Positions 9,070-9,114 of a stretch of DNA of 9,473 nucleotides are shown piece after piece (the stretch's first letter is position 1; each line of letters begins with the position of its first letter). The stretch lies in IMG/VR virus record IMGVR_UViG_2703718801_000021, positions 1 through 9,473 of that record. One strand, given 5' to 3'. The stretch comes from a virus (Duplodnaviria; Heunggongvirae; Uroviricota; Caudoviricetes). The position numbers were made by a program, and so were the translations under genes. The notes below the pieces were generated by a model. The model ran no database searches. It was given only the letters and a program-made list of their open reading frames with translations, and was not told the origin of the DNA.

Positions 9070-9114
9070 CGCTCTTTGTAACAACGGACATTCGTCCTAC
9101 GTCGCTGAAAAGCG
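9070..9114 (+). promoter_or_regulatory. nutR-like site: boxA, spacer hairpin, boxB-like GAAA-loop hairpin
   Basis: CGCTCTTTGTAACAAC (boxA-like), then GGACattcGTCC, then TACG, then TCGCTgaaaAGCGA. The layout parallels the nutL-like element, with different but still complementary stem sequences. Confidence 0.6.

Follow-up and report, generated by a model that had tools for sequence, protein, structure and literature searches.

Antitermination from the early promoters contributes to the expression of late genes and of toxin genes in Stx phages. Among the closest described systems is that of H-19B (Neely & Friedman 1998, 2000), whose nutR was reported to have "two hairpins" (Muteeb et al. 2012, PMC3526286), with footprints showing protection of the spacer by NusA and Rho and of the boxB loop by N (PMC3526286). 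The H-19B record reads CCGCTATTTTCACAAT-GGACATTCGTCC-TACG-TCGCTGACAAAGCGA. The dyad symmetry of the spacer in H-19B nut was reportedly first analyzed by Neely & Friedman in Mol Microbiol 2000, who are also said to have found boxA, NusB and S10 dispensable in this system. In VT2-Sakai (Sp5), the equivalent of positions 9070–9109 of the DNA studied here is annotated as 'putative N-utilization rightward' (AP000422.1 12452-12491), and related sites are annotated as nutR in 933W and as boxA/boxB in HK106.

We analyzed a window of 9,473 nt, by which we mean the whole stretch of viral DNA at its full length. It represents the early region of a lambdoid prophage with the order int...N-nutL-cI-cro-nutR-cII, and recombination and early-left genes are also found in it. 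The features used below are:

75–1361, minus strand: integrase
7455–7727, minus strand: N antitermination protein, 90 aa (Pfam N_peptide PF25694, E 8e-32), with the arginine-rich motif GTAASRRRARRANLQSQ
7872–7826, minus strand: nutL, located between pL and N
8073–8774, minus strand: cI repressor (Peptidase_S24 and HTH_3)
8844–9059, plus strand: cro, 71 aa, ending ...FPPEHKAA (HTH_3, E 4e-12); its counterpart in VT2-Sakai is annotated as cro
9057–9059 and 9060–9062, plus strand: cro stop codon TAA and a second in-frame TAA, forming tandem stops
9145–9170, plus strand: putative Rho-dependent tR1 of the pR transcript, according to the VT2-Sakai annotation
9201–9473, plus strand: cII (Phage_CII, E 4e-34), continuing to the end of the window

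The stretch from cro over nutR to cII is 97–99% identical in many sequenced phages (VT2-Sakai, Stx2-converting phage 1717, 2851, ev017, 2G7b). Of 5426 complete E. coli genomes, 594, among them Nissle 1917 and the type strain, match a 96-nt piece made of the cro end and nutR over 80% or more of its length; in ATCC 11775 and Nissle 1917 the identity is 100%. The nutR module is among the commonest regulatory modules of E. coli prophages and serves Stx phages such as VT2-Sakai as their early-gene switch. The nutR found here is already known from the annotation of VT2-Sakai and, for its architecture, from H-19B, and the significance of our finding is slight beyond correct annotation. Taking all evidence together, we consider it likely that 9070–9115 is the nutR of a lambdoid prophage of the VT2-Sakai/H-19B antitermination family and that the palindromes around the cro stop represent a neutral scar of the junction.

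Anatomy of nutR and nutL

An earlier note on this DNA had described a nutR-like element downstream of cro, in which boxA is followed by two short hairpins in parallel to nutL. All of these parts are present, and with an N gene in the same window and covariation in both hairpins the element is a true nutR. Its end had been placed at 9114, but boxB runs one base further, to 9115. The parts of nutR are:

9070–9085, plus strand: boxA, CGCTCTTTGTAACAAC, made of the core CGCTCTTT (9070–9077) and GTAACAAC
9086–9097, plus strand: spacer hairpin GGAC-AUUC-GUCC, with 9086–9089 pairing with 9094–9097
9098–9101, plus strand: invariant UACG linker from the spacer hairpin to boxB
9102–9115, plus strand: boxB UCGCU-GAAA-AGCGA, a 5-bp stem with a GAAA loop, with 9102–9106 pairing with 9111–9115

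The boxA core is the sole exact match of its sequence in the window and fits the nut boxA pattern CGCUCUU(U/A). The spacer hairpin has a folding energy of −5.2 kcal/mol (z −4.2), and boxB, the presumed N-binding site, one of −6.5 kcal/mol (z −2.7). On the minus strand, nutL (7872–7826) has the same layout with different stems, consisting of boxA GGCTCTTTAAACAAC with the core GGCTCTTT, the hairpin GUCGA-ACAC-UCGAC, UACG and boxB UGGCU-GAAA-AGCCA. Both nut sites thus carry a near-consensus boxA, and both boxB elements (9102–9115, and 7826–7839 on the minus strand) have a true GAAA tetraloop. The two copies are placed as nut sites are, one after cro on the pR transcript and the other between pL and N. 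A search of the whole window against Rfam with E-values up to 10 returned no nut family and no meaningful match. We also considered a put-type RNA as in HK022, which has neither N nor boxA and consists of two larger adjacent stem-loops, and this was ruled out by the presence of the N gene and of boxA. In comparison with HK022 put, the hairpins here are only 4–5 bp long and one of them is a canonical boxB.

The nutR of lambda (boxA CGCUCUUA, boxB GCCCUGAAAAAGGGC) occupies the same place between cro and tR1/cII and has the same boxA core, a 5-bp boxB stem closed by U-A, a GA-rich, GNRA-like loop and the N/Nus mechanism; it differs by its unstructured spacer, its pentaloop and an N belonging to another family than the N found here. 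H-19B shares the architecture of boxA, spacer hairpin, UACG and boxB, including an identical nutR spacer hairpin (GGACAUUCGUCC) and the boxB stem UCGCU/AGCGA, as well as the N C-terminus CLPNVA(I/L)YAAGYRKSKQLTAR. However, H-19B has GACAA as its boxB loop where the window has GAAA, and its boxA reads CGCTATTTTCACAAT. The N of H-19B has 127 aa, another arginine-rich motif and 40% identity to the 90-aa N, its nutL lacks a recognizable boxA whereas nutL here has a near-consensus one, and its cro stop (GCATAAGTAACACCGCT) carries no palindrome. The same P22-like pentaloop GACAA sits on the same boxB stem in H-19B, 933W and HK106. VT2-Sakai, with 97% identity over 166 nt, shares cro, the junction with the first of the palindromes described below, boxA, the spacer hairpin and the GAAA boxB, and differs by a few substitutions downstream of boxB. 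Its second palindrome has AG at the centre instead of AT, and therefore the perfect 12-mer present here, together with its BamHI site, is not conserved. Judged by its sequence, the nut site of the window is, as in VT2-Sakai, a sister specificity type to that of H-19B.

The mechanism proposed for this site is taken from the lambda and H-19B systems, and what our analysis shows is how the site is built, that its hairpins covary and that the types of N and boxB are inherited together. Past cro, the pR transcript would display boxA, the structured spacer hairpin, UACG and the GAAA-loop boxB, and the prophage's own N would bind the boxB loop on the nascent pR RNA through its arginine-rich motif. 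NusA would contact the spacer, with NusB/S10 probably located at boxA. RNA polymerase modified in this way would resist the Rho-dependent tR1 and continue into cII-O-P and through later terminators, and nutL would do likewise on the pL transcript. The near-consensus boxA at both sites hints that boxA may matter for nut function here, unlike in the boxA-less nutL of H-19B.

Covariation of the nut hairpins and co-inheritance with N

Variants of nutL and nutR were gathered from 120 IMG/VR contigs (loci L008-L127). A raw MAFFT alignment of the nut sites misplaced the hairpin arms, and pairs were counted on a loop-masked alignment of equal-length sequences. In the nut hairpins, 58 of 58 cells were paired (100%), and six of the ten pairs changed on both sides. 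This covariation score was reached by none of 500 shuffles, and slid registers were only 14–50% paired. For the spacer hairpin we saw three stems unrelated to each other (GGAC/GUCC, GUCGA/UCGAC and GAUUC/GAAUC), all of them paired and with freely varying loops, and two-sided changes in four of its five pairs. For boxB we found five stem variants (UC, UG, GC, CG or AG, then GCU), which were likewise all paired, with two pairs changed on both sides.

The type of N was strictly matched to the boxB loop. In the 37 loci with the 90-aa N (GTAASRRRARRANLQSQ), both nut sites invariably had a GAAA boxB, and in the 41 loci with the 127-aa N of the H-19B type boxB was invariably of the GACAA type; there were zero mixed cases in at least 78 loci. 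Covariation and this co-inheritance of N and loop together indicate that the second hairpin is boxB, the cognate site of N, and that the first is a structured spacer. A literature search for a GAAA-tetraloop boxB in Stx phages returned nothing relevant, and no paper on the GAAA/GACAA specificity pair was found. The site offers a clean natural case of a true GAAA-tetraloop boxB strictly matched to its own N type, which makes it modestly useful.

Palindromes at the seam between cro and nutR

The nested palindromes that had been noticed at the cro stop, reaching into the start of boxA, are present as described:

9052–9066, plus strand: palindrome 1, CCGCTTAaTAAGCGG, read as CCGCTTA-A-TAAGCGG
9063–9072, plus strand: palindrome 2, GCGGATCCGC, which extends to the perfect 12-mer AGCGGATCCGCT at 9062–9073

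As RNA, palindrome 1 is a 6-bp hairpin of −7.5 kcal/mol with the stop codon in its loop. Its left arm is made of the Ala-Ala-stop codons (GCC GCT TAA) and its right arm of the linker following the stop. Palindrome 2 shares GCGG with palindrome 1, covers the first 4 nt of boxA and reaches −4.0 kcal/mol alone; in relatives its centre is AT, AG or GT. Palindromes of such size occur at chance frequency in the window, and what stands out is only that the two overlap at a single spot. Among perfect inverted repeats, we counted two with arms of at least 7 and a spacer of at most 3, compared to 2.5 expected from dinucleotide shuffles, and six with arms of at least 6 and a spacer of at most 1, compared to 5.1 expected. 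The overlap is explained by a single GCGG that complements the pentamer CCGCT, which is found both at the cro end and at boxA.

Comparison with relatives places the palindromes at a boundary between modules. Phages with another cro (933W, HK106, HK97, mEp234 and others) align to the window only from 9069 onward, and their junction reads GCA TAA GTAACA CCGCT..., without palindrome. Louie, vB_EcoP-683R2 and 720R6 have the window's cro exactly up to the TAA (9059), where homology ends; they next carry GACATTC-CCGCTCTTACAC...GCCCTGAAAAAGGGC, which is a lambda-type nutR, also without palindrome. Moreover, four or more other cro types lead into the identical Sakai-type nutR via GCATAAGTAACCCCGCTC, GCATAAGTCACCCCGCTC or GCCTAAGCAGTACCCGCTC, again without palindrome. 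The palindromes of the window thus sit exactly where homology switches, and the seam resembles the conserved module-boundary sequences of lambdoid phages, e.g. the immunity-region boundaries discussed for HK106 and other lambda-immunity phages (EF120461). We also observed the window's cro and the palindromic junction joined to a third nutR type (CGCTCTTTATCAATCTGCACCGCCGACAACGCGGTAAC) in L188, L195 and L149, with the exchange point inside or just past the boxA core.

The seam was then scanned with the pattern TAAG-N5-CCGCTCTTTA, which yielded 107 contexts, and a consensus was derived over 29 clusters of dissimilar Cro. This consensus is GCN GCN TAA G-C-A-N-Y-A CCGCTCTTTA, and the sites behind it have many boxB types. 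Two positions left free by the search pattern were A in 28 and 29 of the 29 clusters, respectively, and about 23 of them have Ala-Ala codons ahead of the stop. The consensus could reflect an extended context of boxA or, alternatively, a linker for recombination that exchange keeps uniform; as a quantified description of the seam between the cro and nutR modules it is a modestly useful by-product. In the window the sequence is GCC GCT TAA followed by TAA GCGGAT CCGCTCTTT, and the second TAA aligns with the consensus stop of the junction TAAGNNNNNCCGCTCTTT. The window linker GCGGAT thus departs from the consensus GCAACA and comes with an extra TAA, and it is this departure that creates the palindromes. 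A comparable double-stop scar was found in L242, with the second TAA out of frame (GCCGCTTAA-GAAG-TAAGCAACACCGCTC).

These observations are most likely explained by a neutral junction scar. The palindromes would then mark the seam of the cro module and the nutR module, outside the nut machinery. The right arm would be an atypical form (TAAGCGGAK) of the conserved linker TAA GCANYA CCGCTCTTTA, and the second TAA would be a stop codon that belongs to the linker and has become redundant. Palindrome 2 would exist because the GCGG of the right arm also complements the CCGC preceding boxA in all such junctions. Quasi-palindrome-templated mutation possibly sharpened the palindromes.

Among relatives, we found eight distinct versions of the junction that bear the palindromes. 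The left arm varies by synonymous changes (GCC to GCU gives a G-U pair, GCU to GCG breaks the pair) and the right arm is constant. No two-sided changes were found in the palindromes and no measure rose above the shuffles, though with eight versions and 96% column identity the variation is too low to exclude function. Several results count against a neutral scar. The region 9040–9125 folds better than its shuffles (z −3.66), and the palindromic junction is stably inherited, being present in all sampled contexts that join the window's cro to a Sakai-type nutR and likewise where this cro meets the third nutR type. In addition, a stop-codon hairpin exists in an independent group with a lambda-like Cro (GCCGCUGCAUAAGCGGC), where GCCGCU-GCAUA-AGCGGC directly precedes boxA with −10 to −12.7 kcal/mol, which indicates that such a hairpin arose or persisted at least twice. 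The cro genes of this group (L129-L131, L133, L134, L136, L138-L142) end in GCC GCT GCA TAA GCGGCA CCGCTCTTTA.

A general stop-codon hairpin across lambdoid junctions was rejected: in about 91 junction contexts it is present in two lineages only, and the 30 nt before boxA have a median minimum free energy (MFE) of −2.0 kcal/mol, compared to −7.5 kcal/mol in the window. Long-range pairs of the MFE structure, ACAAAG 9046–9051 in the cro codons with CUUUGU 9074–9079 in boxA and GGAAC 9041–9045 with GUUCC 9116–9120, were rejected as well. They show no two-sided changes and are broken in L149 and L188, and ACAAAG is missing upstream of the same boxA in most other cro contexts. Where the window and Sakai lineages differ by A/G and U/C, the changes fall in different pairs of this long-range pairing.

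Functional readings of the palindromic junction

The earlier note had further proposed that the palindromes couple the termination of cro translation to nut RNA folding or to NusB/NusE access. Worked out as a ribosome-dependent toggle, GCGG 9063–9066 would pair either with CCGC at the cro end, leaving boxA free, or with CCGC at the boxA start, sequestering its first 4 nt. A ribosome finishing cro, possibly paused at Pro-Pro-Glu, would in this way gate the loading of NusB/S10 and tune the assembly of N/Nus. Both pairings exist in the sequence, and recognition of boxA by NusB-NusE requires 8 single-stranded nucleotides (PMC3177189). At equilibrium hairpin 1 dominates (−7.5 vs −4.0 kcal/mol) and boxA is largely unpaired; palindrome 2 is predicted to form only with the left arm of palindrome 1 blocked. 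When this left arm alone was blocked in silico, the unpaired probability of the first 4 boxA nucleotides was 0.03, compared to 0.69–0.78 otherwise. Blocking the left arm would thus pair the boxA start, and a switch is therefore thermodynamically possible. Pro-Pro-Glu is of the EF-P-dependent type of pause motif. Located 5–7 codons before the cro stop, it could conceivably stall ribosomes close to this arm, and the front of a ribosome paused at 9033–9044 would lie roughly at the left arm of palindrome 1. Among the junction contexts collected, an F-P-P motif 6–8 codons before the stop (9033–9044 in the window) recurs in many unrelated cro genes of the HTH type.

Comparison between phages gave this coupling no support. 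The same nutR stands after other cro genes without the arms, and the same cro stands before the lambda nutR without the right arm. The palindromes are thus lineage-specific and absent from relatives that share either flank, which is largely the outcome that had been named beforehand as speaking against a function. Nor are there compensatory changes, and the mutually exclusive pairings of a translation-coupled attenuator, conserved and covarying, were not found at the palindromes. Structure prediction showed boxA to be similarly accessible in both cases, with values of 0.24–0.75 with the palindromes and 0.39–0.54 for the same nutR without them. Moreover, given the footprint of a ribosome, one holding the left arm would reach GCGG within about 2–3 codons, and hairpin 2 would be fleeting. 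In the related H-19B, boxA, NusB and S10 are reportedly dispensable (Neely & Friedman 2000). The only Rfam match at the palindromes was Trp_leader on the opposite strand, which is at chance level (18.1 bits compared to a gathering threshold of 41, E 8.9), and a literature search for a described coupling between the cro stop and boxA returned nothing relevant. We regard the toggle as very unlikely. If the palindromes did gate boxA, translation and transcription would be coupled at a nut site on an additional, new level, and the stop-codon hairpin of the lambda-Cro-like group (GCCGCUGCAUAAGCGGC) would represent convergent evolution.

The junction might also have been selected for its tandem UAA UAA and not for the palindrome, as a fail-safe stop that spares nutR-bound N/Nus from read-through ribosomes. 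The frame past both stops is open to the TGA at 9129–9131, and a ribosome reading through would therefore cross boxA, the spacer and boxB. It is a classical result in lambda, reportedly from Olson, Flamm & Friedman in 1982 and Warren & Das in 1984, that translation across nutR blocks N action. A single stop 7 nt before boxA, however, is what most lambdoid junctions have, those with the identical nutR included, and the out-of-frame second TAA of L242 is what is expected of a recombination scar rather than of a selected tandem stop. We think this reading very unlikely. Hardly any weight falls on a role of the stop-codon hairpin in RNA fate, either as a 3′-exonuclease barrier that stabilizes cro mRNA or as a weak terminator or pause site on the minus strand (pRE/antisense). 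On the minus strand, 9066–9052 (CCGCTTATTAAGCGG + CTTTGTGTTC) does fit a simple terminator pattern with a 6-bp stem, and the hairpin of the lambda-Cro-like group is followed by GTTTTTGCTGCTT on that strand. Yet the hairpin of the window is weak (6 bp, −7.5 kcal/mol), its U-tract is poor and it is absent from most relatives. From what holds in lambda, ending pRE transcripts before cI would defeat the establishment of lysogeny, and boxB and the spacer hairpin downstream already supply 3′ structures. A terminator scan with a loose pattern found 3 sites in the region, compared to 0.9 expected, and its match at 9066–9052 on the minus strand is weak. A plus-strand terminator formed by AGCGGAUCCGCU and CUUUGU was rejected, as the scan detected zero plus-strand sites at the palindromes. 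The neutral junction scar remains our preferred reading of the palindromes.

Some further hairpins were observed at and around this locus. On the minus strand, the hairpin of the lambda-Cro-like group together with the following GTTTTTGCTGCTT resembles an intrinsic terminator. Within the region annotated as tR1, the inverted repeat TATGCGT-TTCC-ACGCATA (9145–9162) is conserved in 933W, HK106 and H-19B. Directly past the cI stop and upstream of pL, the minus strand carries at 8021–8042 an inverted repeat, AACCCGAC/GTCGGGTT, with TTTCTTTTT behind it, a probable intrinsic terminator for the cI transcript. Finally, a strong terminator-like hairpin of 12 pairs, AGAACGCTCGGTTGCCGCCGGGCGTTTTTT, lies opposite the 3′ part of cII (9446–9473, minus strand), and we take it to match the terminator of lambda oop RNA.
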